Assembly (NCBI GenBank): GCA_964641245.1
Contig: CAZXML010000001.1
Span: forward strand, 127,959 to 191,958
Direction of reading: 5' to 3'
Origin: an uncultured Gammaproteobacteria bacterium
GTDB taxonomy: Bacteria > Patescibacteriota > Patescibacteriia > Magasanikbacterales > GWA2-37-8
DNA: 64,000 nucleotides
The position numbers and the translations under genes are program-made. The stretch's first letter is position 1; the number at the start of each line of letters is the position of its first letter. The notes beneath the pieces were generated by a model. It made no database searches and had not been told where the DNA came from. It was given only the letters and a program-made list of their open reading frames with translations. Positions 4,070 through 62,285 of this stretch are shown here, piece after piece.

Positions 4070-5137
4070 GTGATTTCGTTAAATCATATGTTTGAGAACC
4101 TGCTGGGAAAACTGAGAAAAGATATTGGTATAGATTTGGGTACGGCAAATACTCTTGTTTATGTTAAAGGACGCGGAATAATTATTAATGAACCAAGCGT
4201 GGTGGCCGTTAACACCAAGACCGAACAAATTCTTGCTGTCGGTAATGAGGCCAAAGAAATGCTCGGCAAAACCCCGCCTCATATTCTTACTACCCGTCCG
4301 CTCATCAGTGGTATTATTTCCGACTTCGAAGTTACGGAAAAAATGCTTAAATATTTTATTGACAAGGTTTATGAAGACAGTATGAATTTTATGACCCGCC
4401 CCAGAGTGGTGGTTGGCGCGCCGCTGGAAATTACCGAGGTAGAACTTAAAGCTATTAACGACGCGGTTATTAACGCTGGCGCCCGGGAAGTAATTGTGGT
4501 TCAGGAACCAATGGCCGCGGCTATCGGCGCCCGCATGCCAATACGCGAACCGGTCGGAAGTTTTATCGTGGAAATTGGCGGCGGGACTTCCGAAATTGCC
4601 GTTATCTCTTTAAGCGGCATAGTTACATGGCGTTCCATTCCGGTTGCCGGAGACGAACTCAACCGTAATATTATACAATATGCCCGGGACAATTTTAATC
4701 TGTTGTTGGGAGAAAAACAGGCGGAAGAAATCAAAATTAAAATTGGATCGGCCATAGAGCTACATGAACCAATGCACTTCCCAATGCGCGGCCGCGATCT
4801 TGTTTCCGGACTGCCTAAAGAAATTATGATTAATGATTCACAGGTTAGAGAAGCTATTACAAAATCACTACGGACCATCATAGAAAATATAAAAGGCACT
4901 CTGGAAATTACACCGCCAGAATTGGTCGCCGATATTCACGAAAGGGGAATAGTGCTTTCCGGCGGTGGCGCTCTTTTGCGCGGTTTCGACCAACTAATTG
5001 CCCGCGCCATCGAAATTCCGGTTCGCATTGCCGACGATCCGTTAACTTCCGTGGTTAGAGGAACAGGCCTGCTTCTGGATGACGATGAACTTCTTAAAGA
5101 AATCGCTGTTAAAACTCAAAATCAAGGATCTTCCTAG
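4070..5137 (+). CDS. mreB: rod shape-determining actin-like protein MreB
   Basis: 'IGIDLGTANTLVYVKGRGIIINEPSVVA' and 'VVVGAP', plus the full actin/Hsp70 fold motifs. Confidence 0.9.
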   Translation: MISLNHMFENLLGKLRKDIGIDLGTANTLVYVKGRGIIINEPSVVAVNTKTEQILAVGNEAKEMLGKTPPHILTTRPLISGIISDFEVTEKMLKYFIDKVYEDSMNFMTRPRVVVGAPLEITEVELKAINDAVINAGAREVIVVQEPMAAAIGARMPIREPVGSFIVEIGGGTSEIAVISLSGIVTWRSIPVAGDELNRNIIQYARDNFNLLLGEKQAEEIKIKIGSAIELHEPMHFPMRGRDLVSGLPKEIMINDSQVREAITKSLRTIIENIKGTLEITPPELVADIHERGIVLSGGGALLRGFDQLIARAIEIPVRIADDPLTSVVRGTGLLLDDDELLKEIAVKTQNQGSS

Positions 5138-5146
5138 TAAATTACT

Positions 5147-5947
5147 ATGCTTCGTTTTAAGGCAAAAAATTACTTTTTTTTAGGATTTATATTCGTGTTG
5201 CTTATTTTTTTCCATTATTTTGGGTGGCTTGGCGCGCTGGAACACGGTGTACGTTCTTTAATAATTCCTATTTCCACCAAAATAACACAATGGCGCTTGT
5301 CTTCACAGGATTCTTACAATTATTTTGCCAATCAAAAAAATCTGGTTGGTCAATACAATAAATGTCTCAGTGAAGATCAGGACTCGGATGTAGCCGACGC
5401 AAGAATAAAGGATCTGGAAAAAGAAAACAATGAAATCAGAAAACAACTGAATTTTTTTCATCGCCGAAATTTTACGGCTGTAGGCGCTGACATCGTTGGC
5501 CAAAGCTCCAACAGCGCGGAAAAAATGGTAATAATTGATGCGGGTAGTAGCGCGGGAATAAAACTTGGTCAACCGGTTGTCGCCAGAGACGGAATTCTGG
5601 TAGGCACAATTGCCAAGGTTGAAAGAGATATCGCCATGGTGCGTTTAATAAATGACAACCAGAGCAAAATAGCGGCCACAATTTTAAATAAAGACGGCAG
5701 TTTGGGTGTAGTGGAGGGTGGTTATGGTTTAAGTGTACGAATGAATTTCATACCAAGAAATGAAACAGTGCTTATCGGTGATAAAATTATTACCTCCGGT
5801 TTGGAACAGGCAATTCCGCGCGGTTTGCTGATTGGTGAAGTTGCGGTTGCCGAAAATGAGGCCTACCAGCCGTTTCAACAGGCGGTCCTCACCACCGCCA
5901 TCGACCTCTACAAACTCACTATTGTCAGCGTTCTGATTTCCAACTAA
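5147..5947 (+). CDS. mreC: rod shape-determining protein MreC
   Basis: N-terminal TM helix, a coiled coil ('IKDLEKENNEIRKQL'), then a beta-rich domain ('GQPVVARDGILVGTIAKV'). Lies immediately downstream of mreB. Confidence 0.7.
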   Translation: MLRFKAKNYFFLGFIFVLLIFFHYFGWLGALEHGVRSLIIPISTKITQWRLSSQDSYNYFANQKNLVGQYNKCLSEDQDSDVADARIKDLEKENNEIRKQLNFFHRRNFTAVGADIVGQSSNSAEKMVIIDAGSSAGIKLGQPVVARDGILVGTIAKVERDIAMVRLINDNQSKIAATILNKDGSLGVVEGGYGLSVRMNFIPRNETVLIGDKIITSGLEQAIPRGLLIGEVAVAENEAYQPFQQAVLTTAIDLYKLTIVSVLISN

Positions 5948-5958
5948 CCCTTCCGCCT

Positions 5959-6504
5959 ATGTTGCAACTATTCTGGAGAACGCTGCGCTTTATTTTCATT
6001 ATCTTCGCAATCTTAATAACGCATGTTTTTGTAATTAATTTTTTACCTTCCCCTTTTAATCATATAAATATTACTTTTTCCTTATTGCTGCTGTTTTTAA
6101 CAGCCAACTCAGATAGAAAAATAATCTGGCTCGGTTTAATTGTTTCTTATTTATCGGAGCTGTTCAGCGGCGCGCCATTTGGAATTGGCATGGCGTCCAC
6201 CATTATCAGTCTTCTGGTAATTAACTGGTTTCAGCTTAATATTCTAACAAACCGGTCCGGATATATGGTGTTTTTATCGTTGTTTTTTGGTGTCACTTTG
6301 TATAGAGCTATATTTATCCTGTTTCTGACAGTTAATAATTATTTTTCCCACCAGGAACCGCTTTCATACCGGGAAATCATAACGATTGCCGGCTGGGAAA
6401 TTCTCCTGTCATCCGTAGTCGTATTTATACTGTATTTCTTATACTCATTATTTTTAAAAAGTCTTAATCCGGCGCGTAAAAAGAGCGGAATGATATATGT
6501 CTAA
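5959..6504 (+). CDS. mreD: rod shape-determining protein MreD-like polytopic membrane protein
   Basis: 181 aa and very hydrophobic. Its position between mreC and the PBP2 gene supports the call. Confidence 0.45.
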   Translation: MLQLFWRTLRFIFIIFAILITHVFVINFLPSPFNHINITFSLLLLFLTANSDRKIIWLGLIVSYLSELFSGAPFGIGMASTIISLLVINWFQLNILTNRSGYMVFLSLFFGVTLYRAIFILFLTVNNYFSHQEPLSYREIITIAGWEILLSSVVVFILYFLYSLFLKSLNPARKKSGMIYV

Positions 6505-10908: not shown

Positions 10909-11014
10909 AAAAAATTCTTATTGCCACAAGCAATAAAAGAAAATAAAAAGATTTCATTAAAATATATTGATTAAATTTTTGGTTATTTGCTAATTGTTAA
11001 TTGTTTATTTTTAT

Positions 11015-22147: not shown

Positions 22148-22304
22148 ACAAATTAAAGTTTACAAACTCTCTTTGATAATATACTCCAACATGGCGCTAA
22201 ATTCAATCCCCGCCTTTCCGGCAGCCTTTGGGAATAAACTAGTGGAAGTCATGCCAGGAACGGAAAATTTGTTAATTGCTAATTGTTTTTTGTTAATTAG
22301 TTTA

Positions 22305-23551: not shown

Positions 23552-25024
23552 TTAGGACAACTTTTTAATTGCCAAATGAAGTCTGTTTAAAGATTCGTCT
23601 TTTCCCAACACCTCCGCAATTTCAAATGGCCCGGGAGATTTATCCTGTCCGGATAAAGATGCGCGCATTGGCCAAAGGACAGAACCGGTTGAATACGCCA
23701 TCTGCGCAATCCACTCCCCTATCTTTTGTTCCAGTTTTTCCTTATTCCAGTCTTGAACACTTATTGTATTCATAAATTCCGCAAGGGTTGGCAAAATTTT
23801 CTTCACCTCTTCCGCAGAACTTTTTTTCCAAACCAGCAAATCGGCCGCGTAATCAGGCAAGTCAAAAATAAATTTAATAGCATTTGGCAATTCAGACAAT
23901 ACTGTAATTCGTTCTTTCTCCAATGCGACGGCCTTCGTCAACAATTCAATTTGCTCTTTGTTAATTGTTAATTGTTCATTAACCCACGGCATGCTAATTT
24001 CTACAAGCTGAGCATTGGATAATAACTTTATATACTGTTTATTAAACCAATCCAACTTATCGCCATTAAAGACCGCTCCGGTTTTGACTGCCTTGGATAA
24101 ATCAAAATCTTGAACAAGCTCGTCCAGACTGTACATTTCTTTTTCCGTTCCCGGGTTCCAGCCCAAAAAAGCCACAAAATTTATTAAGGCTTCAGGTAAA
24201 TAACCTTTCTTAATATAATCATCCACAGCCACATCGCCTTGGCGTTTGCTTAATTTAGATTTATCAGAATTAAGCAATAAAGACAGGTGCGCCATTTGTG
24301 GAACTTCCCAACCAAAATATTTATATATCTGTAAATGCTTAGGCAAACTACTAATCCATTCATCACCTCTAATTACGTGAGTGATTTCCATCAGATGATC
24401 GTCCACCACTACTGCAAAATGATATGTCGGGTAGCCATCAGATTTAATCAGCACCTGATCATCAATCAATTCATTTTTAAATCTTATTTCACCATGAATT
24501 AAATCCGTAAATACAGTTTCGCCGGTCTTCGGCATTTTCAACCGCACCACGCATTTTTCTCCGCCTTCCGCCCGCTTTTTTGCTTCGGTTGGGCCAAGAG
24601 ATAAACATTGACCATCGTAACCGGTAGGTAATTTTTTAGCCGTCTGCTCCTCCCGCAATTGCGTTAATCTTTCCGTTGTACAAAAACAATAATAAGCATG
24701 CCCGGCCTCTAAAAGCTTATTAACATGTTTCCTATATATAGGAAGGCGCTCCGATTGTGTATAAGGCCCATTTTCACCAACTTCACCAATCTTGCCTTCT
24801 TCACCCATCACCACCCCTTCATCCGGTGATAACCCCGCCCAATTTAAGGATTTCAAAATATTGGCCACAGCATCGGCTACATAACGCTCGCGGTCCGTGT
24901 CTTCTATGCGCAAAATAAATTTCCCGCCATGTTTTTTGGCAAATAAATATGAATACAAAGCGGTGCGGAGTCCGCCGACATGCAGATAACCAGTGGGGCT
25001 GGGAGCGAAACGAGTTTTGATCAT
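23552..25024 (-). CDS. gltX: glutamyl-tRNA synthetase
   Basis: 'RFAPSPTGYLHVGGLRTAL' is the HIGH region and 'KLSKRQG' is the KMSKS motif. Confidence 0.9.
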   Translation of the reverse strand: MIKTRFAPSPTGYLHVGGLRTALYSYLFAKKHGGKFILRIEDTDRERYVADAVANILKSLNWAGLSPDEGVVMGEEGKIGEVGENGPYTQSERLPIYRKHVNKLLEAGHAYYCFCTTERLTQLREEQTAKKLPTGYDGQCLSLGPTEAKKRAEGGEKCVVRLKMPKTGETVFTDLIHGEIRFKNELIDDQVLIKSDGYPTYHFAVVVDDHLMEITHVIRGDEWISSLPKHLQIYKYFGWEVPQMAHLSLLLNSDKSKLSKRQGDVAVDDYIKKGYLPEALINFVAFLGWNPGTEKEMYSLDELVQDFDLSKAVKTGAVFNGDKLDWFNKQYIKLLSNAQLVEISMPWVNEQLTINKEQIELLTKAVALEKERITVLSELPNAIKFIFDLPDYAADLLVWKKSSAEEVKKILPTLAEFMNTISVQDWNKEKLEQKIGEWIAQMAYSTGSVLWPMRASLSGQDKSPGPFEIAEVLGKDESLNRLHLAIKKLS

Positions 25025-25026
25025 AA

Positions 25027-25114
25027 TTGAAATGAGTGAGTGAAATATTTAGCTTGCTAAAATATTTTCGAGCGAATAAGTTTATTTGGGCATTACTTAG
25101 CCCTATAATTAAAT
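25027..25114 (-). promoter_or_regulatory. conserved ~88 nt upstream/leader module, copy 1 of 2, abutting the gltX start
   Basis: About 75% identical to 54183-54263, which lies upstream of the ferredoxin gene on the same strand. Contains the palindrome AAAATATTTT and ends 'cactcatttc..tt' immediately before the ATG. Confidence 0.4.
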
Positions 25115-25917: not shown

Positions 25918-26754
25918 TTATAGCATTCTTTCTCTAAGCGCTAAATAAGTAAATTTTGCCGTTGCGTTAAATATCCGCACAAATCGTCGAGGCTCCTGAA
26001 TCAATCGATACACCCATTCTAACCCAATTTGGCGTAAAAATAAAGGGGCGCGTTTTACTTTTCCGGAAATAAAATCAAATGACCCGCCCACGCCCATGGC
26101 TATTTTTACACACGGCATTTTTGATAGGTTTTCGTGAATCCATTTTTCTTGCTTGCCCATGCCAAAGGCGACGAAGAGGATGTCGGGGTTTGATTGGTTA
26201 ATTTGTTGAATGGTTGAATTGATGCCGGCGACGAAAACCCCCTCTTCTGTTCTCCCCCTTATAGGGGGAGAGACCGCAGCGAACAGCAACGTGTCGCTCC
26301 CTCCCCTATAAGGGGAGGGACAGTGGGTGGGGTTTTGTTCGTCAATCGCTGGACCCCTATCGAAACCAGAGATCTTTAAACTAGGAAACTTTTTCTGCAA
26401 TTCCTCTGCCGTTCTCTTCACTGTTTCGTCACTCCCCGAACCTAACAAATAAACACTCATCCCTAACTCACCGGCTACCCTACAAATCTCTAACATAAAA
26501 TCTACCCCTGGGACTCTTTTAATTCCAGTAAAAATCTGTAAACCCATCCCATCGCACAAATTCAAATCGCTGGAATTTAAAACCTTTTTAAAATATTCGT
26601 CTTTTTGCGCCTTCACTACAAATTCCGGATTGGGAGTAAAAATTGTATGTTGGCCACCATGCAAAAAATCCACGACTTTTTGTAGTGCGGTTTCTTTGGT
26701 ATCTCCGTCAATTTTTATACCCAAAAATTGCATAATATGGTAAAATTGTACCAT
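25918..26754 (-). CDS. WecG/TagA/CpsF-family glycosyltransferase (N-acetylmannosaminyltransferase-like) carrying an in-frame repeat insertion
   Basis: 'ILFVAFGMGKQEKW' and 'IAMGVGGSFDF..GKVKRAP' match the family. The start is uncertain: M14 at 26754 or M21 at 26733. The ORF-track start at 26793 would overlap the CIRCE-like site. Confidence 0.7.
   Translation of the reverse strand: MVQFYHIMQFLGIKIDGDTKETALQKVVDFLHGGQHTIFTPNPEFVVKAQKDEYFKKVLNSSDLNLCDGMGLQIFTGIKRVPGVDFMLEICRVAGELGMSVYLLGSGSDETVKRTAEELQKKFPSLKISGFDRGPAIDEQNPTHCPSPYRGGSDTLLFAAVSPPIRGRTEEGVFVAGINSTIQQINQSNPDILFVAFGMGKQEKWIHENLSKMPCVKIAMGVGGSFDFISGKVKRAPLFLRQIGLEWVYRLIQEPRRFVRIFNATAKFTYLALRERML
26225..26345. repeat. GC-rich double-hairpin element inserted in frame within the TagA-family gene
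   Basis: Perfect hairpins lie at 26251-26271 (TCTCCCCC-ttata-GGGGGAGA) and 26298-26320 (TCCCTCCCC-tataa-GGGGAGGGA). The local GC content is far above its surroundings. It encodes about 40 extra residues that are absent from the family consensus. Confidence 0.6.
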
Positions 26755-33126: not shown

Positions 33127-33233
33127 CTGTCATCCCGAATGAGCCGTAGCGACGAGGGATCTAAACCGATAAAAGAAAATTTTTTTTAATTTGAATAGAT
33201 CCCTCGTCGGCTAAGGCCTCGCTCGGGATGACA
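33127..33233. repeat. inverted pair of GTCATCC-family hairpin repeats. Left unit 33127-33161, right unit 33197-33233.
   Basis: 'tgtcatcccgaatgagccgtagcgacgagggatct' ... 'agatccctcgtcggctaaggcctcgctcgggatgaca'. The right unit is identical over 37 nt to 52521-52557. Confidence 0.7.
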
Positions 33234-33248
33234 GGTTGTGACTTGAAT

Positions 33249-35638: not shown

Positions 35639-35708
35639 TTGTCATCCTGAACTTGTTTCAGGATCTATCACGACTAACCAAGATGCTGAAACAAGTTCAG
35701 CATGACAA
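35639..35708. repeat. inverted pair of GTCATCC-family hairpin repeats between def and fmt
   Basis: Left unit 'ttgtcatcctgaacttgtttcaggatct' at 35639-35666. Right unit 'tgaaacaagttcagcatgacaa' at 35687-35708. The left unit is identical over 28 nt to the reverse complement of 58202-58229. Confidence 0.7.
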
Positions 35709-37695: not shown

Positions 37696-39129
37696 ATGAA
37701 CGCTTCTACCCTTACAAAAAGACCAATCCCCTTATTCCTTGCCCTATACTTTGGCTTGCGAATTTTTTCCTATTTCTTCAGCCCAGGAACCCCATTATAC
37801 TTGGGCAACCCTATAAATTGGATTGTTTCCGTTGGAATCCTACTACTTACTACCTACTACTTACTACTTCGCAATGACGAGCGTGGCTGGCTGATTATTG
37901 CCGGAGAGTTAATTTTGGGTGGGGCGGGCGGCTTTTTGGAGATAAGAGGTGTTTCTTTGCGAACTTTGTTGCTAATATCCGCAATGGCAATTTTTGTATA
38001 TCATGTTTTAAAAAATAAACAATTTGACGTAATTGGGAGCAAAAGAACTCTATTGCTTATATTCAAAGCCTTGTTCGTGATAATTGGCCTGTCCGCCATG
38101 CGCGGTTACTATTTTGGTCACAATCTTAAACTGGTCTTGGCCGATACCATTCCATATCTTTTCCTCTTATACTACTTCCCGCTCAAACAACTTCTTCAAT
38201 CCGAAACATTTCGTCGCACATCGTTTAACATGTTAATTGCGGCAATAATCGGCAATTTTATTTTTATATATCTGACCCTGGCCGGATTTTCTTCCGGAGT
38301 TTTTGCTCTGCAGGATTCCTACTACCATTGGTTCAGAGATGTAGCCGGCGGCAAGATTACCGACTACGGCACCGGATTTTTTAGAATACTGACAAATGAA
38401 CAATTATTGATTGTGCCGTTGTTGATATTTTTCATCGGAAATATTATTCGCCAACCCACCCCTACCCCGCCCAAGCGGGGAATTACAAGTTTTGGCCTCG
38501 CAATGACAGGCGCGCTATTGGCGCTACTAACAATAAATATAACCCGCATTTACCTGGTCGCGCTGGCCGTTGGTATTTTATTTTTATTCTCCGCAAAAAA
38601 TTGGAAACGCTGGCTTACCTACTCTGCCGGAGCGTTCATTTTTTTTATTTTGGCTTTTTCCCTCACTCACCTAGCCGCCACCAAGGGAAAAAGTTTGGGC
38701 TGGGAATATTTAGGATTGCGCCTGCAAAGTATTGCCATGCCGCAAATTGAAGACAGCTCGCTTAGCCGGATGATGCTTCTGCCGAAAATTCTGGAAAAAA
38801 TCAAACTTCATCCGATATTGGGCAATGGATTGGGTGATGCGGTTACAGTGTTTAGTCCAGTATTCGATGCAAACATAACAACCCCGCATTTTGACTGGGG
38901 CTATTTGGAAATAATAGACGAACTTGGTCTCGTCGGTCTCGCAACTTGGATATTAATTATTGGATATTTGATATTGAAAATTAAACAAAACAAGACCGCT
39001 CTCGCAGGTCTTGTTGGGTTGTTGGTTATAAACATCACTTCCCCGGCGCTATTTCATGTGTTGGGAGTGGTTTTTTTAATTTACTTACTAAGTAGCTATG
39101 GCGAAGTTGAACTCACCGAGTTCCACTAG
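37696..39129 (+). CDS. O-antigen ligase/polymerase (Wzy_C) family polytopic membrane protein, carrying an in-frame repeat and a 14-nt tandem duplication
   Basis: 'HFDWGYLEIIDELGLVGLATWILII' resembles the Wzy_C signature. Many TM helices. Confidence 0.5.
   Translation: MNASTLTKRPIPLFLALYFGLRIFSYFFSPGTPLYLGNPINWIVSVGILLLTTYYLLLRNDERGWLIIAGELILGGAGGFLEIRGVSLRTLLLISAMAIFVYHVLKNKQFDVIGSKRTLLLIFKALFVIIGLSAMRGYYFGHNLKLVLADTIPYLFLLYYFPLKQLLQSETFRRTSFNMLIAAIIGNFIFIYLTLAGFSSGVFALQDSYYHWFRDVAGGKITDYGTGFFRILTNEQLLIVPLLIFFIGNIIRQPTPTPPKRGITSFGLAMTGALLALLTINITRIYLVALAVGILFLFSAKNWKRWLTYSAGAFIFFILAFSLTHLAATKGKSLGWEYLGLRLQSIAMPQIEDSSLSRMMLLPKILEKIKLHPILGNGLGDAVTVFSPVFDANITTPHFDWGYLEIIDELGLVGLATWILIIGYLILKIKQNKTALAGLVGLLVINITSPALFHVLGVVFLIYLLSSYGEVELTEFH
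37840..37867. repeat. perfect tandem duplication of a 14-nt unit (ctactacttactac x2) inside the CDS
   Basis: 37840-37853 is identical to 37854-37867. The unit length is not a multiple of 3. Confidence 0.7.
38450..38484. repeat. 35-nt G/C-hairpin repeat, copy 1, in frame inside the O-antigen-ligase-like gene
   Basis: 'gccaacccacccctaccccgcccaagcggggaatt' is identical to 60448-60482. Contains the hairpin CCCCGC-ccaa-GCGGGG. It encodes 'QPTPTPPKRGI'. Confidence 0.75.
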
Positions 39130-43433: not shown

Positions 43434-46400
43434 TTATATTATACTCTCCTTTTTCTTTTTCCTTTTTAATCTTAGACTGTTGATGCCCGCATACCCCAAA
43501 TATCCTAAACAGCCCACTAAGGTAGTACCGCTGATAAGTAGCCCTAAATAAAACCATCGCTGTGGGAAAAATTCTAGCACCATTTCAATATCGTATGTGC
43601 CGTCGGCATTTTTAGTACACATACTATTCTTTACGCAATACTCATCTACATCCACATACCAACCATTTAAAAAGTCATTTAACTTATAATGATACTCATC
43701 AGCAATTTTATCCGGTTTTACAAACGGCACCCACGATCCAAAGAATCCGTTAACTTTATCATTATTAAATTGCAATTGCCACTGCTCATGATAGCTCTCG
43801 CTCATCGCTAAATAGAACGGTGTTGTAGCACCTTTAATATGTACCAACTTTTTCGTTGGATTTATTAAATCAAAAGTAATTGATTTCGGTTCCTCAAGTT
43901 CAATACCCGGATCACTTACCAGATAATAAGCATCACTCAAATCAGGAACTTCAATTAACTTGAAATTGTCATATCTATTTATTATATTAGTCTTTTCATC
44001 TGTTGAATCAGCATAAACATACAAGGAAACAGAAGTCGCCCCCTCTGGAACTTTAATAAGTTTTGAAAAAGTATTCCAATTTTTGTCTTTAATAGCAAGA
44101 TCCTCTGAAATAATAGTTTTTTCTTTATCGTTAAAACTAAAATAGTATAAAGCATGATCCGCATTTGGGCTCTGATAGTCAAAACTAAATAAATACGAAC
44201 CGCCGGTAGTTACGTTCAAACCAATTGCGGTACAGGCGTTATGCCTTGTCGCTTCAAGTTGTAATGATTGCTCACCATCTGACTTTACTTCTTTATTCAC
44301 ATCCATACCCAAAATAGGATTTTTATCAAAATTATGACAATCACCCACTTTGTCCTGCCAAGGACCGCTCTCAAAAGATGGGTTAGGAATTATGTTTTGA
44401 TAATTATAGTTTTTATCTTGATATGTAAAGACAAAATTCACAGCGTTAGATTTTGGTAAAATATTTTTCGAATACTCGCTTGTAATGTTGGTGGGTACTT
44501 CTACGGCGCTAATATATTTTAATTTACTAAAATTAAAATTATCATACCGATTTATAACTTTTTCTACATTATCTGATGCTTTGGCATATATATAAAGAGT
44601 GGCTGAGGTGGCGTCCTGGGGAACGACAATCAATCTTCGGTATGTATTCCAATTTGCATCCACAATATTTATAACATCCTTTACTTCAGTTTTTTCTTTA
44701 TCATTAAAGACAAGATAAAAACTTGCCTGCTTAGCGTTTGGACTTTGAAAGTCAAAAGTTAATACGTACTTTCCAATATCTTGAATTGATATCTTTGTAT
44801 TAACACAAGCGGTGTGTTTCGTAGCATAAAGCTCTAATGACTGTGCCCCACTACTCATATTCTGTTGGGTCAAATTCATGCCTATGACAGGATTGCTATC
44901 ATAATTATTACAATCTCCGACTTTGTCTTGCCAAGAACCGCTCTCAAAAGAAGGATTATTGATCAGATTATTTGAACTTGCAAAAATACTGATTTGTGAA
45001 TCAGCCAAAGAATTGCCTAAATTTATAGTATTACCTTTGGTAAAGGCGGTAAAGTTACTTCCTTGTTCTAAATAATACTCTGTGTTTAAATTTTTAGAAA
45101 TATTTAAAATATTTTGTGAATCATTCTGACTTATAATTTGATTACCTATTTTTAACATCTCGCCATAATTTATGTTTATTTGTATTTTGCTATCGGTATC
45201 AACACCGTATACTCCAAAAACTTTCTTATTTGCATAGACAGTATTATCTTTATTGCTAACAAAAAAACTAGAAGTAGATACTAGTGTTTTACTATCCGAA
45301 AGAATACTACTAAACGATAAATCCTCAAACGGATTAGTTATTTTTATTAGAGGATTTGTATTTGTTTTTTTATCATTCACGCTAAAGTAAAAATCTGTAT
45401 TAAGTTTTTTGTTTATAAAATTAAATTTTGAATCAAGGTTATTTGCAGAATCAAAATCATATAATTTAGAAAATGGAAAAATTAGTTCTTTATAATTTTT
45501 ATTTTCATATATAACAAGATTTGTTGCACCTACATCCACCTTTTTTAACCAATTAACTTTATCAAGTTGATCAATATACCATTGCCGAATATTTGGGTTT
45601 TTATCTCCTCCGTAGTACTGAAAGAAATCGTCGTCGTTTGAAATATCTTGAATAGGAATAACAACATATTTTATTGAAGAGATACCAAATAATGTTTTAG
45701 AGAAAGACTGTTGAAAAACGTTGATTACTTGATTTTGCGCAGCCAAACCATTATTCGCTAAAAATAAATTGGCCCAAGTGGTATCTACTCCACTTACTTC
45801 GGGATGCAGGTTTGTGTTAATTCCCCATCGAGAATTTCTAGGCACCCAATATGTTCTAGAATAATCCGACTGTGACTCTACAAAATTTTTAAGCATTAGA
45901 TAGTCGGATGAGATACGGCGAGGCGTGAACATTGCGCCTATCTCCCCAGTAACAATAGGTTTGGTATTCCAAAGAAAGAGCGTAACAATAGCAACTATAG
46001 AGCAGTTTCTAACAAATACTCTGAATTTGTTCTTATTACTGTTTTTTAATATCCAAGCGACCAGAGAACCCAGCAATGCTGAATACCCAAGCGCGATCAA
46101 AAAATAAAACTTACTTGCTTCCCGAAACGCATTAAAGCCAGGGAAATGAGCAAAGAGCCAAGGATAGACTTGTGAAAAAGGTTGATCTACTTGTTTAGTT
46201 AAGAAAATACCAACCAAAGAAATAATCGTAAAAAACGTTATATATTTATTTTTTCGATTTAAAAGAAAACCAATAAAAGCAAAGATGGGTATAAGCCAAG
46301 AATAAAAAGAAATGGGCTGCACAATAAACCATTTAACCGCCGAGCCGGTCCAAAAAGGATGAAGGAGTGTAAAACTAGATTGTAAACTCCAGAAATTGTT

Positions 46401-50028: not shown

Positions 50029-50973
50029 TTATTTAAAATTGCTTTTTCGTATAACATAATTCGGGCGATTAGCGACTTCGGTCTTAATAGTAGCAATATA
50101 CATTGCCACCAACCCTACACTGGCCATAATCAAACCAACTAAAAAAAGAATGAGAATGGCCAACTGAGCCGGACCCGTAAAGCTTGAAGCGTAACTATTT
50201 TCAAAAATATATTTGCCAATAAATATATACAAACCAAAGGAACCAAAAATGACGGTTATAAACAAACCAAGATATCCGACAACTTTTAACGGAAACAAAC
50301 TATGTGCAATAAAAGAGCTTAGAGCCAATTTAACCAGCTTAAGTCTACCGTAACTAGCCTCTCCGTTAGCGCGTTCATCGGCATCAAAATTTATATAATC
50401 ACGCTTAAAACCAAGCCAATCAATCAAGCCCCTGGTCATTCTATTATGTTCAGAGAATCGACGAAAAGCCACGACCACCTTTTTATCAAGTAAACGGAAA
50501 TCTGTGGCCTGGGGAGTGATTTTTGTCTCCCCAATTAAGTTCATGATTTTATAAAACACAGCCGAACCGAGCTTCTTTATTAAAGAATCACTTTTGCTTT
50601 TATTCCGAACACCTACCACTACTTCCGCGCCTTGTTGCCAGCGCTCAATAAATTCCGGAATTATCCTTACTGGATGTTGAAGATCGGCATCAATCATAAT
50701 TATTGCGTCACCATCGGCCATATCTAACCCGGCAGATGTCGCTGACTCTTTGCCGAAGTTTTTAGAAAATTGAATATATTTAACCCTCTTATTATCTTTT
50801 GCTAATTCTTCTAAAATACTACCAGAATTATCTGTACTGCCATCATCTATAAAAATAGTCTCCCAATTATATTTAGGTAAAGTCGCCATAACATCACTGA
50901 TATGGGCGTATATTAGTGGTATGTTAGACTCTTCGTTAAAAACTGGAACGAGTATTGAGATTTTTTTTGACAT
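50029..50973 (-). CDS. polyprenyl-phosphate glycosyltransferase (GT2; DPM1/ArnC/GtrB-like) with C-terminal TM helices
   Basis: 'ISILVPVFNEE', 'IDDGSTDNS' and 'IMIDADLQHP', plus two C-terminal TM helices. Confidence 0.75.
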   Translation of the reverse strand: MSKKISILVPVFNEESNIPLIYAHISDVMATLPKYNWETIFIDDGSTDNSGSILEELAKDNKRVKYIQFSKNFGKESATSAGLDMADGDAIIMIDADLQHPVRIIPEFIERWQQGAEVVVGVRNKSKSDSLIKKLGSAVFYKIMNLIGETKITPQATDFRLLDKKVVVAFRRFSEHNRMTRGLIDWLGFKRDYINFDADERANGEASYGRLKLVKLALSSFIAHSLFPLKVVGYLGLFITVIFGSFGLYIFIGKYIFENSYASSFTGPAQLAILILFLVGLIMASVGLVAMYIATIKTEVANRPNYVIRKSNFK

Positions 50974-52274: not shown

Positions 52275-53948
52275 TCAATTCCCGTCCAACCCCCTCGCCT
52301 CTTCTCTGCTCTCCACCAATCCCAACCGCACCAAACGCGCTTCTATTCCGCTTTTTTTACGGCCCAGGGTTTCGGCTATTATAGAAAGGAGTGTTTTTTT
52401 GGAAAAAAGTATTTTTAGAATTTCGTCTTGTTCTTCGGTCCACGAACGAAAAGCGTTAGGGTGTTTTTCGCGAATTTTGTCAAAACTGCGATCTTTGCCT
52501 TTATTTTTTTTCATGGGTATAGATCCCTCGTCGGCTAAGGCCTCGCTCGGGATGACAGCGGTGGGAGGGATGACAGATGGTGGGATAACAACAGTGCCAC
52601 TGCATGCTTTTACAAAATTGTTGTGCATTTTTTGTAATTCAGCGGGTGGAATTTCGGCAAAGGCGGTTAAGGCGGCTTCGGAGCTGGCGCGGAATACACC
52701 GTCTTCTTTTAAAACATCCGGATGAACCTGAAACGCGCGTTCGTTCCAGCCGAGCAGATGCAGGCCTTTTAGGCGACGAACGCGGGAAAGCGCCACATAA
52801 CCCTGGCCAAACTCAAAAACTCCGCTCAAGTCCACGACCGCTTCATCCAAACTCATCCCCTGGCTTTTGTGAACCGTAATTGCCCAGGCTAAACGCAGAG
52901 GCAATTGTGAAATTTTGGCGCGCGATTTTCCATTTTCGTCTATACTCCAATCCATTTTTTCTACGGTAATTTTCCGGCCGTCGTTGGTTTTTACAATCGG
53001 CATGCCGATATACTTATCAAAACTTTCCACCGTGCCCAGCGTGCCGTTTACATAACCCTCTTTAGGATTATTTTTGGTAAACATTATTTTTGCGCCTTCT
53101 TTTAAAACTAAATTATACGGAGAAAGACATCCTCTCTGCAATGTTTCCACCAACCCGGGAGCGCCCTTAGATGTCATGATGTATGTTACGGGGTGTCCGG
53201 AAAAAGTTTCCAACATGGCGTCATTGGTGCGGTCAACATTTATGTTATGCGTATAAAGTTTCACCGCTTTGTCCGGCGCGTCATCAGCCAAAATTTTTCG
53301 GCTTTCTAGTTGCGCTAAATGGTTTTCATTAAAATTATTGGAGCGGATTGCCGAAAGTAAATTTAAAAACTTACTGTCATCCTGACGATGCTGTTCGGTA
53401 AGATAACAAACCATTGGATTCGCTCTTTTCCAGGCCGGAGAATCATAGGCAAACCGCGCTATTGGAGTATTAAACATTTCAGTTTGATCATCCCGACTTG
53501 CTACGCTTTTCGTTATTGGTGGTAACTGAAAAAAATCCCCTACCAAAATAACCTGTAACCCGCCAAAGGCATCGTTGTTTTGTCTGATACTCCGGCACAC
53601 GGCCTCTACCATAGAAAAAGTATCGGGGCCGAGCATTGATACTTCGTCTATCACCAAAACTTTTGCGCGGCGAACGCGTTTAACCAAATATTCGGTAGAA
53701 GAAATTTTATCTAACTCATACCTATCCAAATACGGTTTGATTCCAATCCCACTCCACGAATGAATTGTCATCCCGCCAATATGAGTAGCCGCGATGCCCG
53801 TGGAAGCCGTAATGGAAGGCTCTATCCCCCGCGCGCGCAAATAATCCGCGTACTGATTTATAGTATGCGTCTTGCCCGCTCCCGGTTCTCCGGTTAAAAA
53901 AACATTGGCGCCGGTTTTAAGTATGTCCAGCGCTTCCTTCTGATTCAT
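52275..53948 (-). CDS. PIF1/RecD-family (AAA_30) DNA helicase with a C-terminal HTH-like domain and an in-frame repeat insertion in the linker
   Basis: 'LTGEPGAGKTHTI', 'VLVIDEVSM', 'VGDFFQLPP' and 'TVHKSQGMSLD'. The linker 'VVIPPSVIPPTAVIPSEALADEGSIP' is encoded by the repeat. Confidence 0.75.
   Translation of the reverse strand: MNQKEALDILKTGANVFLTGEPGAGKTHTINQYADYLRARGIEPSITASTGIAATHIGGMTIHSWSGIGIKPYLDRYELDKISSTEYLVKRVRRAKVLVIDEVSMLGPDTFSMVEAVCRSIRQNNDAFGGLQVILVGDFFQLPPITKSVASRDDQTEMFNTPIARFAYDSPAWKRANPMVCYLTEQHRQDDSKFLNLLSAIRSNNFNENHLAQLESRKILADDAPDKAVKLYTHNINVDRTNDAMLETFSGHPVTYIMTSKGAPGLVETLQRGCLSPYNLVLKEGAKIMFTKNNPKEGYVNGTLGTVESFDKYIGMPIVKTNDGRKITVEKMDWSIDENGKSRAKISQLPLRLAWAITVHKSQGMSLDEAVVDLSGVFEFGQGYVALSRVRRLKGLHLLGWNERAFQVHPDVLKEDGVFRASSEAALTAFAEIPPAELQKMHNNFVKACSGTVVIPPSVIPPTAVIPSEALADEGSIPMKKNKGKDRSFDKIREKHPNAFRSWTEEQDEILKILFSKKTLLSIIAETLGRKKSGIEARLVRLGLVESREEARGLDGN
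52521..52590. repeat. GTCATCC-family repeat unit plus degenerate tandem partial copies, in frame within the helicase gene
   Basis: 52521-52557 is identical to 33197-33233. It is followed by 'gcggtgggagggatgacagatggtgggataaca', a reiteration of the gggatgaca terminus. Confidence 0.75.
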
Positions 53949-53988: not shown

Positions 53989-54180
53989 TTATTCTCCCCA
54001 CGAAATTGCCTGGGTCGGGCAAGAATTAATTGCTGTTTCAATTGTGGCCTCATCGTCGCCAACCTCGTCTAAAACCAACGCTTTTGTGCTATCGTCGGTC
54101 ATTTTAAATGTTTTGGCGGCAATGGACGGACAAAGACTGCAACCGATGCACTTATCCGCGTCTACTTTTGGTATTTTCAT
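53989..54180 (-). CDS. small 4Fe-4S ferredoxin
   Basis: 63 aa, with 'CIGCSLCPSIA' and a distal 'CP'. Confidence 0.7.
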   Translation of the reverse strand: MKIPKVDADKCIGCSLCPSIAAKTFKMTDDSTKALVLDEVGDDEATIETAINSCPTQAISWGE

Positions 54181-54182
54181 AA

Positions 54183-54263
54183 GCGAAATGAGTGAATAAA
54201 ATAGTTAGTTTACTAAAATATTTTTGAGCGAATGAGTTTATATGCGGCAAAGCCCCTATAAAA
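54183..54263 (-). promoter_or_regulatory. conserved upstream/leader module, copy 2, abutting the ferredoxin start
   Basis: See 25027-25114. The two copies are collinear at about 75% identity and sit at the same distance from their start codons. Confidence 0.4.
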
Positions 54264-56189: not shown

Positions 56190-56260
56190 ATGTGAATTAG
56201 CAATTAACAACGAACAATGAGCAATCGATTGTTTCTTGTTAATTGTTAGTTGTTAATTAA
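56190..56260. promoter_or_regulatory. long imperfect palindrome in the rrf2-nifS upstream region (candidate operator)
   Basis: 'caattaacaacgaacaat' ... 'attgtttcttgttaattg' match at 16 of 18 positions as an inverted repeat, flanked by TTAATTG reiterations. Confidence 0.4.
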
Positions 56261-56891: not shown

Positions 56892-56971
56892 TTGTCATCC
56901 TGAATGAAATGAAGGATCTCTGTCTCAATCGCGAAATGGACAGAGATTCTTCGTTTTGCTCAGAATGACAA
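56892..56971. repeat. inverted pair of GTCATCC-family repeats with a central 8-bp-stem hairpin, between thiI and the exonuclease gene
   Basis: Left unit 'ttgtcatcctgaatgaaatgaaggatct'. Centre TCTCTGTC...GACAGAGA. Right unit 'attcttcgttttgctcagaatgacaa'. Confidence 0.6.
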
Positions 56972-58150: not shown

Positions 58151-58201
58151 AGCGTCTCAAATGTCAAGCTGAATTTATTTCAGCATCTATAATGTCCGCG
58201 C

Positions 58202-58229
58202 AGATCCTGAAACAAGTTCAGGATGACAA
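58202..58229. repeat. solo GTCATCC-family repeat unit, reverse orientation
   Basis: 'agatcctgaaacaagttcaggatgacaa' is the reverse complement of 35639-35666, a 28/28 match. Confidence 0.7.
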
Positions 58230-60072: not shown

Positions 60073-62285
60073 TTTATCGCATTCAAAATCTTTTCTTTAA
60101 TATCGTTTGGAGTCATTTTGGCGACCTCATAAACCTCGGCTACATTGCCGGATTTTAAATAGTGAGTTATGCCGATGGATTTTTTGGCGTAATTTGGTTG
60201 GAGCATGAACGGATACAGAAACCCGGGCCAGCCGTTGTGGAGGGTGATGACAAGCGGGCGTTCTTCATCCGGCAGAATTAATTGGGCGCTGGCGGGATTG
60301 GAGTGACGGAGTTCTTCAAATAGTTCCGGGGAGGTGACGGAAATGATTTTTATATCAAAACCTTTGGCTTCAAGTTCGGGTATAATTTCTAGGGTGTTTA
60401 ATAGGACTTGCATGCCGCAGATGGCGAGGACGAGCTTCCGACCGTCGGCCAACCCACCCCTACCCCGCCCAAGCGGGGAATTCGAAAATTGTTTGTAGAC
60501 GTAGGCGCCGTTGGTGGCTGAAATCGCCGGTGGGACAATAGCGCGGTTGATTACGGGTTGTTCCGGTCTGTAGACGGACAGAACGATTGGTTCGCCGCGT
60601 TCCAGCGCGTAAAATAACATTTCTATAGTTTCGTTAGCATCGGTAGGTTTGTAAACTTTTATGCCGGGCAAGGCGTTGTAAAGAGACATCCAATACATTC
60701 CCTGATGTGTTGGGCCGTCCTCGCCAGTTTCCGGGCCATCATGCGCGGCTAAGGCAATAAAAAATCCTTTGGTTTCCGGGTTGAGCTGATTGCCGATAAC
60801 AGCCAGGCGAATAGCGTTGGCCATCATATTTGTAAAGACGGCAAAAGTGCCAAAAACAGAAACGGGTTTGTATCCGCCGGGTAAAATATCTTGAGTTAAG
60901 CCGGCGCCCATCATGGCCATATTTTGTTCGGCAATTCCATAACGAATACCGCGCCCTAACGGATTTTTCCGGCTGATGAGACCATAAACTTCTTCGGCGG
61001 TATTTGTGAAAACAGATTTTGATAAATCCCCCGCTCCGGCGTAAAAAAATGCGGTTTGTTTCATGTACCAGGCCATCCACGCTTGCGCGGCTGTGCGGGT
61101 AGAAACTTTTTTTCCTTCGGCAAAAACCAGTTCGGGCGGTAAAACTTTTGGACGTTTTATGGCCAGTGGGTTAACCATCGGCCGGCCATTTAGCGTCTTC
61201 ACCATTTGTTTTACCAATTCCGATTCATGCGGAATTTTTTTAGCTCCAACTTCTAATCTTTCTAAAATATATTTTTCATCATCAGTTGTAATTTCTTTTA
61301 AGACGGTTTGAATATCAGCCATTACTTCCCCCGCTTTTCCAGGAATATCAAATCCCAGTTTTTTCATTATAGACACATACTCGTCATGTTTTACGGGCGA
61401 GCCGTGCGATGCGGCGGTGTTTTCTTTGGAGCCATAGCCTTTTCCTTTTAAGGTATGGCAAATAATTACCGTTGGCGAGCCGTTGGCAAAACCCTGCGCG
61501 GCCAAACGATAAGCGTAAACCATTTCCAAAACATTGTGCCCGTTTGTTTCTATCACATTCCATCCCAGCCCCAGCCAATGATTTATGTACGGCGAAGCCA
61601 CCACTTCCTCAATTTCCGCATCAATGCCAAAATGATTGTAATCCAAACTGACAATCATGTTTTTTAATCCGTTGGTGGCGATAATATTTCGCGCCTCATA
61701 AGTCATCCCTTCTTCGCTTTCCGCGTCGCCCATAAAAACAAAAGTTTTGGTATCCAATCCGCAGGATTGATGAACCATAGCCATTCCACCCGCCGCCGAA
61801 AATCCGTGCCCGGACGGCCCGGTAGTAAAATCGGAATAAGGATATTGAGCTTCCGCGTGACCCTGCGGGCCATCGGCGTGTCTAAAGCGTAATAAATCCT
61901 CCGGAAAAACTGCCTTCACCACCGCCCCGGAAAATTGCCTCCCTGCGCGCCGTAACATTTCATAATATAAAGCCTGCCCGCCAAAAAGCAAAGGAGTGCA
62001 ATGACCGGAACTCCAAACCACTCTGTCTCGGCCAGGATTTTTTGGATTCACCGGATCAAAAGCCATTACCCCACCCAAGGTCATTGCTAAAAATTGTTCT
62101 ACTTTTCCACTGCTGCCCGGATGGCCGGATTGTCCGGCTTCTACGGCGGCGAAAATAAGGCCACGGATAACTTTGGCCAGTTTGTCTAATCTTTGTATAT
62201 CAATTCCGTCTATGGCAGATATTTTTTTGTTTTGAATGTTTATGTATTCGGGAGCTAGAGGGTTTGCTTTTAATTTTTTAAACAT
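60069..62285 (-). CDS. tkt: transketolase (single-chain, 738 aa) with an in-frame repeat insertion
   Basis: N-terminal TPP motif 'SGHPGSS' ... 'GHCTPLLF', and 'GDAESEEG'. The insertion encodes 'NSPLGRGRGGLADG'. Confidence 0.85.
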   Translation of the reverse strand: MFKKLKANPLAPEYINIQNKKISAIDGIDIQRLDKLAKVIRGLIFAAVEAGQSGHPGSSGKVEQFLAMTLGGVMAFDPVNPKNPGRDRVVWSSGHCTPLLFGGQALYYEMLRRAGRQFSGAVVKAVFPEDLLRFRHADGPQGHAEAQYPYSDFTTGPSGHGFSAAGGMAMVHQSCGLDTKTFVFMGDAESEEGMTYEARNIIATNGLKNMIVSLDYNHFGIDAEIEEVVASPYINHWLGLGWNVIETNGHNVLEMVYAYRLAAQGFANGSPTVIICHTLKGKGYGSKENTAASHGSPVKHDEYVSIMKKLGFDIPGKAGEVMADIQTVLKEITTDDEKYILERLEVGAKKIPHESELVKQMVKTLNGRPMVNPLAIKRPKVLPPELVFAEGKKVSTRTAAQAWMAWYMKQTAFFYAGAGDLSKSVFTNTAEEVYGLISRKNPLGRGIRYGIAEQNMAMMGAGLTQDILPGGYKPVSVFGTFAVFTNMMANAIRLAVIGNQLNPETKGFFIALAAHDGPETGEDGPTHQGMYWMSLYNALPGIKVYKPTDANETIEMLFYALERGEPIVLSVYRPEQPVINRAIVPPAISATNGAYVYKQFSNSPLGRGRGGLADGRKLVLAICGMQVLLNTLEIIPELEAKGFDIKIISVTSPELFEELRHSNPASAQLILPDEERPLVITLHNGWPGFLYPFMLQPNYAKKSIGITHYLKSGNVAEVYEVAKMTPNDIKEKILNAIK
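60448..60482. repeat. 35-nt G/C-hairpin repeat, copy 2, in frame inside the transketolase gene
   Basis: Identical to 38450-38484. Confidence 0.75.

Follow-up and report, generated by a model that had tools for sequence, protein, structure and literature searches.

A palindromic repeat arm in the linker of a PIF1-family helicase of a Magasanikbacteria-type genome, probably carried as a translated passenger

An in-frame repeat in a helicase gene

The subject of this analysis is a short repeat that lies inside a helicase gene, in a 64,000-nucleotide (nt) stretch of DNA that we call the window (positions 127,959 to 191,958 of the metagenome-assembled contig CAZXML010000001.1). The host gene is a minus-strand coding sequence (CDS) of 557 residues at 52275..53948. 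Its product is a PIF1-family helicase of superfamily 1B (SF1B), as judged by matches to PF05970 (E=1.1e-31, 110.7 bits against a curated cut-off of 25.9) and to Pif1_2B_dom (28.8 bits against a cut-off of 23.9), and its GxGKT, DEVSM and QLPP motifs are invariant in 40 orthologs. The identical protein is present in the public collection (P0001), and the orthologs (60-88% identity) carry Parcubacteria or Patescibacteria annotations. In an AlphaFold2 model built on the 40 orthologs (mean predicted local distance difference test score, pLDDT, of 77), the helices of the helicase core end at residue 448 and are followed by coil at 449-487, with pLDDT below 50 at 458-486. The region coding for this linker (52488..52604, minus strand) reads CSGTVVIPPSVIPPTAVIPSEALADEGSIPMKKNKGKDR and is hypervariable in length and sequence among the orthologs. 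Beyond it lies a small helical domain (residues 488-557; 52278..52487, minus strand), modeled with helices at 488-553 and pLDDT around 90.

The repeat itself is a 37-mer, AGATCCCTCGTCGGCTAAGGCCTCGCTCGGGATGACA, of which the window contains exactly two copies, at 33197-33233 and 52521-52557, where chance would give 0. The similarity extends beyond the 37-mer to 56 nt at 93% identity, between 33179-33234 and 52503-52558 (family D7). Read on the minus strand, the helicase copy at 52521..52557 is an arm of the TGTCAT...GATCT type, TGTCATCCCGAGCGAGGCCTTAGCCGACGAGGGATCT, which gives VIPSEALADEGS at residues 465-476. The adjoining 18 nt (52503..52520, minus strand), read as I-P-M-K-K-N, are in register with 33179-33196, which is loop sequence of an intergenic element, and agree with it at 14/18 positions, a level reached by 1.3e-4 of window positions; parallel translations of this flank are SIQIKKN and SIPMKKN. 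On the other side of the arm, its head is partially reiterated (GTYATCCC three times, 52549..52590, minus strand, giving VIPPS / VIPPTA / VIPSEA). Here GGGATGAC stands at 52549 and 52567, among six occurrences in the window against 1.07 expected, and is followed by GGGATAAC at 52582, and Tandem Repeats Finder reports 2.0 copies of period 18 with 89% matches at 52549-52585. The repeat-derived peptide VVIPPSVIPPTAVIPSEALADEGSIP occupies residues 453-478, and the repeat as a whole (residues 453-482) falls entirely within the linker that AlphaFold2 predicts to be disordered.

An earlier note on this DNA had described an identical 37-mer pair, with degenerate tandem copies behind one member, translated in frame as a Pro-rich linker between a PIF1-type helicase core and a C-terminal helix-turn-helix (HTH)-like domain. 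The open reading frame (ORF), Pfam, Tandem Repeats Finder and the model agree with this, and the translation that it quoted is correct. Only the last element of the description is less firm. The C-terminal part is a separate, confidently folded helical domain, and its Pfam matches, to GcrA (E=0.012) and HTH_58, are all sub-threshold; an HTH-like nature is plausible, if unproven.

The C-terminal domain is kept in most of the 40 aligned orthologs and is absent from the closest relative (protein P0002, locus L005), where the helicase at 4545-6023 stops just after the linker, ending in KKNKRKNKKIWQIS, and the next gene is on the opposite strand. Four homologs of 472-492 residues (P0034, P0047, P0049 and P0060) have similar KIWSLS/KIWSLK tails just past a poly-A/Lys tract. 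These short helicases could reflect either loss of the domain or frameshifting in the A-run. A fusion of two genes at "ATG AAA AAA" in the window was considered and rejected, since there is no stop codon and most aligned orthologs have the same fused domain.

Complete two-arm elements and their mobility

The repeat belongs to a family of hairpin-forming inverted repeats, TGTCAT...GATCT, in which a complete copy consists of two inverted arms around a short spacer and each arm is itself a hairpin. Besides one half copy, the window contains four complete two-arm elements, all intergenic, of 67-106 nt with arms of 25-37 nt. The largest, at 33128..33233 between a LigB/Memo-like gene and priA, has the arms TGTCATCC...GGGATCT at 33128-33162 and 33197-33233 around an A/T-rich loop, and folds at -62.6 kcal/mol (z=-10.8). 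The twin of the helicase repeat, which the earlier note took for an intergenic repeat, is indeed intergenic, but it is the right arm of this 106-nt element and not a lone repeat. The element at 35640..35707, between def and fmt, is of a shorter subfamily (inverted repeat I5; -37.2 kcal/mol, z=-7.65). The remaining two lie on either side of thiI: the one downstream, at 56893..56970, has a left arm identical to the linker arm of an orthologous helicase (L006), and the one upstream, at 58162..58228, has one degenerate arm (inverted repeats I1 and I22; -23.4 kcal/mol, z=-4.2).

The helicase copy is a half element, made up of one arm and 18 nt of internal sequence. Translated in the helicase frame, the whole intergenic element reads VIPSEALADEGSIQIKKNFLLSV, then a TAG stop, then IPRRYGSFGMT. 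Its first 18 codons, VIPSEALADEGSIPMKKN, are common to the helicase and the complete element; the stop comes six codons beyond the part present in the helicase, from which the TAG-bearing part is missing. Because the complete element has this in-frame TAG, only a truncated copy could persist in the helicase frame. On folding, the half element shows no significant structure on either strand (z=-0.6 and +0.1), and a role for it as an RNA or DNA hairpin was rejected on these grounds.

Three junctions between neighboring genes were compared with the syntenic loci L002, L006 and L076. The LigB-PriA junction is filled in the window, empty in L002 and L076, and filled by a different type of repeat in L006. 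The PriA-def junction is empty in the window and in L076 and filled in L002 and L006, and the def-fmt junction is filled in the window and empty in all three. Occupancy thus varies from genome to genome at all three junctions, which shows the two-arm elements to be mobile. They have several of the properties of MITEs (miniature transposable elements with inverted repeats): they are shorter than 300 bp, non-coding and multi-copy, they carry terminal inverted repeats, and their presence at orthologous sites is polymorphic. The elements are bounded only by T...A (TGTCAT...ATGACA).

A known RNA family was rejected on the Rfam results: at the gathering threshold, the whole window gave no match, and in E-value mode the only matches were to generic hairpins (miRNA precursors), far below threshold and confined to the intergenic elements, with none at the helicase copy. 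Two other candidates were also set aside. An arm-like match in a GT2 glycosyltransferase gene (50435-50459) falls on the conserved enzyme motif FSEHNRMTR and is attributed to chance, and a priA "start" at 33228, overlapping the arm, is an artefact of the ORF caller.

The same linker in orthologous helicases

No part of the helicase varies more than the linker, which ranges from 9 to 54 residues among homologs. Two repeat-free orthologs have linkers of 26-27 residues (NGTIVSNTAPNQATNSSSSKKPKGKG in L075 and GGNIVSNDVTYTEVEKITKPKKQKGHG in L076), and more distant homologs go down to 9. Since these orthologs have a linker without the repeat, the linker is older than the repeat and independent of it.

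The repeat is not private to the genome of the window. At the DNA level, at least five other species have the same arm in the same position: it is intact in L001, L002 and L003, decayed in L004, and rearranged in L005, the closest relative, where a 23-nt extra hairpin breaks it. The three intact arms, GTCATCCCGAGCGAGGC-nn-TAGCCGACGAGGGATCT, match the window copy in all but the two central bases. Moreover, the half-element layout (one arm and a TATACC-A-rich flank, with no second arm), its orientation and its frame are the same in the window, L001, L003 and L005. Other members of the family occupy the same linker elsewhere. The linker of L006 holds a complete two-arm element of another subfamily, the one that shares its left arm with the window's intergenic arm at 56894-56918, and family variants are found in the linkers of P0012, P0019, P0020, P0028 and P0029. 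Variant linker peptides in other lineages include VILSEEKNP, VIPTGAEGSL, VIPTEAEESL and VILSKAKNP. On a neighbor-joining (NJ) tree, unbootstrapped and with short internal branches, the arm-bearing orthologs are interspersed with arm-less ones. A clean empty site for the helicase insertion was not found among the orthologs; the L075 and L076 linkers are unrelated in sequence, so that the exact junctions cannot be defined.

The earlier note had proposed that a selfish repeat was effectively co-opted as an interdomain linker, and had looked to repeat-free relatives for a linker homologous at both the DNA and the protein level. Such a linker is literally present in the orthologs, but the relatives that have it are not repeat-free, as the family occurs elsewhere in them. 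The comparison shows a shared or maintained insertion, and not that the linker is unrelated to the repeat. Co-option is not borne out as stated, in that the repeat was added to a pre-existing, hypervariable and permissive linker and nothing shows a need for it. The claim is thus only partly supported, and the repeat is better described as a tolerated passenger.

In-frame copies across the lineage

An exact-pattern scan, with one genome taken per species, recovered 73 intact copies of the subfamily in 68 stretches, all from metagenome-assembled genomes (MAGs) of Magasanikbacteria-type Patescibacteria. Most are two-arm elements with spacers of 16-58 nt. With the two copies of the window added, the intact copies number 75, and 26 of these, about a third, lie inside long ORFs. 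The arm is free of stop codons in three of its six frames (VIPSEAxADEG, DPSSAxASLGM and SLVGASLARDD), and these are the frames used by the in-ORF copies. The earlier suggestion to screen other CDS for translated repeats therefore gave a positive answer in related genomes; the window has only the one intragenic copy.

Besides the helicases of the window and of L048 (ortholog P0017), 15 other host genes were identified by Pfam. They encode LeuRS and IleRS (two species each), a UvrD/PD-(D/E)XK helicase-nuclease, PriA (two copies in one gene), QueA, a Mur ligase, PurD, an AIRS-family protein, a rhodanese/UPF0176 protein, TsaE, Fpg and transketolase (two species). In the transketolases of L024 and L037, an arm with a TATTCC-A-rich flank, translated as VIPSEAVADEGSIPNNKK, lies in the linker before the C-terminal domain.

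Several other copies have an extra arm head, partial or complete (TGTCATTCCGACC..., GTCATTT), directly before the full arm: L041, L052 and L032 (21 nt upstream of it), and, in coding sequence, L007 and L045. They resemble the VIPPS/VIPPTA reiteration of the window. GTCAT occurs within 21 nt upstream in 4 of the 75 copies, against about one estimated by chance, which suggests nested insertion or slippage at arm heads.

Two further observations concern the scanned genomes. Records titled "uncultured Gammaproteobacteria bacterium" or "Candidatus Udaeobacter sp." (L008, L015, L020, L010/L019/L048 and others) carry this Patescibacteria-specific repeat together with syntenic Patescibacteria genes, and their titles are probably taxonomic mislabels of MAGs. 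Some LeuRS and IleRS enzymes (L045 3372-7037, L018 3080-6277 and L025 162-3767) also contain whole extra domains, which are NUDIX plus Ser_hydrolase or an alpha/beta-hydrolase in LeuRS, and His_Phos_1 (histidine phosphatase) in IleRS.

Synonymous positions and genome-specific variants

If the arm were simply part of the least constrained region of the protein, its synonymous positions would be expected to drift, and the reverse is seen. Among the four species with an intact helicase arm, 11 of the 13 codons that lie in the arm have the same third base in 4/4, against 168 of 521 outside it (Fisher p=2e-4). The transketolase copy behaves likewise, with third-base identity between L024 and L037 at 13/13 codons inside and 392/734 outside (p=3e-4).

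The central 8 nt of the arm, moreover, follow the genome. In the window, the helicase arm and the intergenic arm both have GCCTTAGC. In the DATION genome, GCTTTAGC, rare elsewhere, is found both in the helicase (L048) and in an intergenic copy (L019), and all copies in the CAZBWU genome have GCCGTAGC. The synonymous conservation, these genome-matched 8-mers and the decayed copy in L004 are the reasons for which an old insertion, repeatedly homogenised from copy to copy, appears to be favored; selection on the peptide would fit less well.

GIY-YIG genes flanked by arms

Every complete KGWRREKK-type GIY-YIG gene in the fetched loci (6/6) is flanked by two arms, the left one about 45 nt upstream of the ATG and the inverted right one over the stop codon. 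The ORFs are of about 95 residues, match PF01541 above its cut-off (E=1.6e-13 and 3.7e-14) and resemble UPF0213/BH0048 (PDB 1zg2, E=4.5e-4); no NCBIfam model matches these arm-flanked proteins. One such unit (L010 781-1154) has a flippase gene on one side and a GT4 gene on the other; in L004 there is a 4-nt overlap between these genes, an empty site. The wider protein family comprises 5064 proteins at E<=1e-10, annotated only generically. In 26 of the best 120 homologs, the translated right arm forms the C-terminal end (DPS...GMT/RSG tails), and GTCAT-type arms or arrays stand beside the gene in three independently fetched homolog loci, from Parcubacteria, Syntrophales and a gammaproteobacterial MAG.

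In the last of these (L088), the GIY-YIG gene at 1501-1809 is followed, at about 1930-2110, by a tandem array of arm-like units of about 24 nt, TGTCATCCTGCAAGAAGAGTATCT, arranged head to tail with no inverted doublets. In 5 of 8 related loci (L001 686-889, L003 197-436, L004 9756-9995, L006 2069-2482 and L076 692-940), the gene directly upstream of the orthologous helicase is a small GIY-YIG gene of a different subfamily, YhbQ-like (MYYLYILECAD...); in the window, a 63-residue ferredoxin-like ORF (53989-54180) takes that place.

The flanking arms point to a system like REPIN/RAYT, in which a GIY-YIG enzyme would move or homogenise the arms. We put forward, as a tentative proposal that may well prove wrong, that the arms are the ends of such a system, in which the UPF0213-type nuclease of about 95 residues would spread the two-arm derivatives and trigger the copy-to-copy repair that keeps intragenic copies identical. 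The by-products would be repeat peptides in linkers and loops of a sizeable share of Magasanikbacteria housekeeping proteins, and arm-like sequences beside the same nuclease family in other phyla. A pair of autonomous and non-autonomous elements of this kind in bacteria was not found described in the literature.

A probable passenger and the alternatives

Overall, we consider it probable that the helicase carries the left half of a mobile inverted-repeat element (the 37-nt arm plus about 18 nt) as a translated passenger in a permissive PIF1 linker, homogenised by the other copies in the genome, and that the family is REP/REPIN-like with a likely GIY-YIG enzyme. The element would have landed in the helicase frame, or been trimmed to fit it, at a linker that was already disordered and variable in length. 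Given three stop-free frames in the arm and a linker that tolerates almost any sequence, VIPSEALADEGSIPMKKN would be translated and carried along without being needed, and only half an element would persist in this frame because the full one has the TAG stop. The insertion would be older than the split of several Magasanikbacteria-type species, with its near-identity to the genome's other copies presumably kept up by copy-to-copy repair or gene conversion. In the genome of the window, an 18-nt slippage duplication of the arm head would then have lengthened the Pro-rich tract. The small UPF0213-type GIY-YIG nuclease is, from the architecture of its loci, the likely mobilising or maintaining enzyme.

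Several points weigh against this account. The synonymous conservation could instead reflect selection on DNA or RNA, or repeated site-specific re-insertion, and the NJ tree would require many losses or replacements after a single ancestral insertion. Target-site duplications are not evident at the four window elements or at the L010 GIY-YIG unit, although one of 1-2 nt is possible, as the compared genomes have diverged. The peptide's translation is deduced from the ORF. The scan required 27 exact bases and so counted intact copies only. As to the enzyme, tblastn with YhbQ-like proteins finds no GIY-YIG gene in the window, so the link rests on related genomes; the loci with the six flanked genes were fetched for containing an arm, with the matching arm lying elsewhere in the locus in four of them; and we know of no transposases among the GIY-YIG nucleases.

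The first alternative, which we regard as unlikely, is that the linker is a preferred target and that the intact arms are young, independent insertions at the same nucleotide. Different family members do occupy this linker (the complete element in L006, and the variants in P0012, P0019, P0020, P0028 and P0029), carriers stand among non-carriers on the NJ tree, and arms that are intact and match the genome-specific variants are what young copies would look like. However, the half-element layout, orientation and frame shared by the window, L001, L003 and L005 would then require the same truncation each time, the decayed L004 and rearranged L005 copies show that an old copy exists at the site, and the insertion sites of the family elsewhere are many and unrelated, without a target motif that stands out.

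Less probable again is a domesticated module, which corresponds to the co-option suggested earlier: the repeat peptide, or its DNA or RNA, would function in the helicase as an acidic/Pro-rich spacer, an interaction motif or a regulatory site and be kept by purifying selection. That at least four species keep the arm in the same position, with a conservation above the average of the gene, agrees with this, as does the parallel in transketolase, where the arm again precedes a C-terminal domain in two species. Selection on the peptide, however, predicts something other than conservation that is strongest at synonymous positions and a central 8-mer that follows each genome's own variant. Close orthologs do without the repeat (L075 and L076) or have it decayed (L004), the closest relative lacks the whole C-terminal domain, and the absence of a significant fold in the half element speaks against a structural nucleic-acid role.

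It is improbable, more so than either of these, that the family consists of structural or regulatory REP-like sites of the host (terminators, mRNA stabilisers or protein-binding sites), with the helicase copy a by-product of their spread. Enterobacterial REP elements have such roles, and the complete elements here do form very stable hairpins between co-directional genes. Against this, their presence at syntenic junctions varies freely among related genomes, about a third of the intact copies lie in coding sequences, in which a terminator would do harm, a nuclease gene has the arms on both sides as its terminal inverted repeats, and no Rfam family matches. Finally, a mis-joined MAG or chance similarity, with a fusion of helicase and C-terminal domain that is not real, can be given next to no weight: repeats can cause chimeric joins in metagenome-assembled contigs such as this one, but no copy of the 37-mer is expected by chance, assemblies made independently from other samples and other species agree in the gene architecture and in the arm and its place, and the C-terminal domain recurs in most of the 40 aligned orthologs.

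Other repeats in the window

A second, unrelated repeat family is represented by the 35-mer GCCAACCCACCCCTACCCCGCCCAAGCGGGGAATT, 100% identical at 38450-38484 and 60448-60482 (D15). It is a repeat of this type that fills the LigB-PriA junction in L006, and the peptides PLLPEEGLGVV and PPLQGEGQGEG in the helicase linkers of P0007 and P0014 look like translations of this family. An A/T-rich dispersed repeat, TTGTTAATTGTTAATTG..., has four direct copies, at 10980-11011, 22269-22300, 23951-23982 and 56192-56260 (D1, I4 and I8), with a palindromic arrangement at 56195-56258, just upstream of the two-arm element at 56893. A 68-nt direct repeat (TCATAA..GAAATGAGTGA...TTCGAGCGAATAAGTTTAT; D5) joins 25021-25088 and 54177-54244 at 85% identity; its second copy is just upstream of the ferredoxin-like ORF next to the helicase, and it may be a shared leader or promoter region. 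Segments at 44115-44385 and 44688-44958, repeated at a 573-nt offset with 72-81% identity (D2/D4), are consistent with tandem duplication of a gene or domain. Lastly, an inverted repeat at 26229-26341 with 39-nt arms and a 35-nt spacer (CGACGAAAACCCCCTCTTC...CCCCTTATAGGGG / CCCCTATAAGGGG...; I3) is of the hairpin type but of a different sequence family.

Implications and relation to known systems

If the account given here is true, the peptides VIPSEAxADEGS, DPSSAxASLGMT and SLVGASLARDD in Patescibacteria proteins would be repeat-derived passengers, which could be masked or used as markers, and such passengers would account for part of the unusual insertions and differences in length seen in the proteins of these reduced genomes. 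The same 12-18 codons in linkers and loops of helicases, aminoacyl-tRNA synthetases, PriA and transketolase, among others, would amount to a natural experiment on protein tolerance. The abundant, uncharacterised UPF0213-like GIY-YIG proteins would gain a testable function, namely REPIN/RAYT-like mobility or maintenance with a different enzyme, and there would be a parallel to the Rickettsia palindromic elements (RPEs) in an unrelated, likewise reduced lineage.

With regard to the flanked gene and the form of the repeats, the closest known systems are the REP/REPIN sequences and RAYTs of Pseudomonas and E. coli, imperfect palindromes of 25-40 nt that occur as inverted doublets, with a small enzyme gene flanked by the units. 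The family described here shares these features: imperfect palindromes of that size, inverted doublets that fold into a long hairpin, many intergenic copies and an arm-flanked small enzyme gene. The gene is, however, that of a UPF0213-type GIY-YIG nuclease and not of an IS200/IS605-like Y1 transposase, and whereas REPs are essentially extragenic, about a third of the intact copies here are in coding sequence. MITEs such as Correia, ERIC, BOX, RUP and the cyanobacterial Nezha type are likewise small, non-coding and multi-copy, with terminal inverted repeats and presence/absence polymorphism; our elements differ in that no target-site duplication was detected, each arm is a hairpin, and the candidate partner encodes a nuclease that does not count among the recognised transposases.

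The candidate enzyme shares its GIY-YIG domain with homing endonucleases (I-TevI and phage Seg) and with UPF0213/YhbQ proteins, and also forms insertable units, filled in L010 and empty in L004. Unlike the homing endonucleases, it has about 95 residues and no separate DNA-binding domain, and it occurs outside introns and phage genomes with dispersed short derivatives, to which classical homing does not give rise. The host protein resembles bacterial PIF1-like helicases with HTH_40 in having a PIF1 core with a 2B domain, then a linker that varies, and a small helical domain of DNA-binding type (homologs of 649 residues carry PF14493); its C-terminal domain differs in falling below the Pfam thresholds, in being shorter, and in being absent from some close relatives.

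The literature yielded no description of this repeat family, which, as the searchable literature is incomplete, is weak evidence of novelty. The phenomenon has precedent: RPEs are palindromic mobile repeats translated in frame, and sporadic in-frame fusions of MITEs with ORFs are also known (PMC10969869). Like RPEs, the repeats described here are short, palindromic and mobile, and lie in frame in unrelated housekeeping genes, where they add extra peptides at permissive places. They belong to another sequence family and another phylum (Patescibacteria/Magasanikbacteria), so the likeness is one of functional analogy and not of membership. They are also smaller (25-37 nt for the arms and 67-106 nt for the elements, where RPEs have roughly 100-150 bp), and differ from RPEs in the half elements found in coding sequences, the link between arms and a GIY-YIG gene, and the apparent homogenisation of in-gene copies across species. 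What we describe is therefore a known phenomenon, in-frame translated palindromic repeats, in a different phylum and with a different, shorter element. It stands out in that one linker is occupied by several family members, that the half elements are stop-selected, that the copies are homogeneous at the nucleotide level across species, and that the arms are associated with a GIY-YIG gene.

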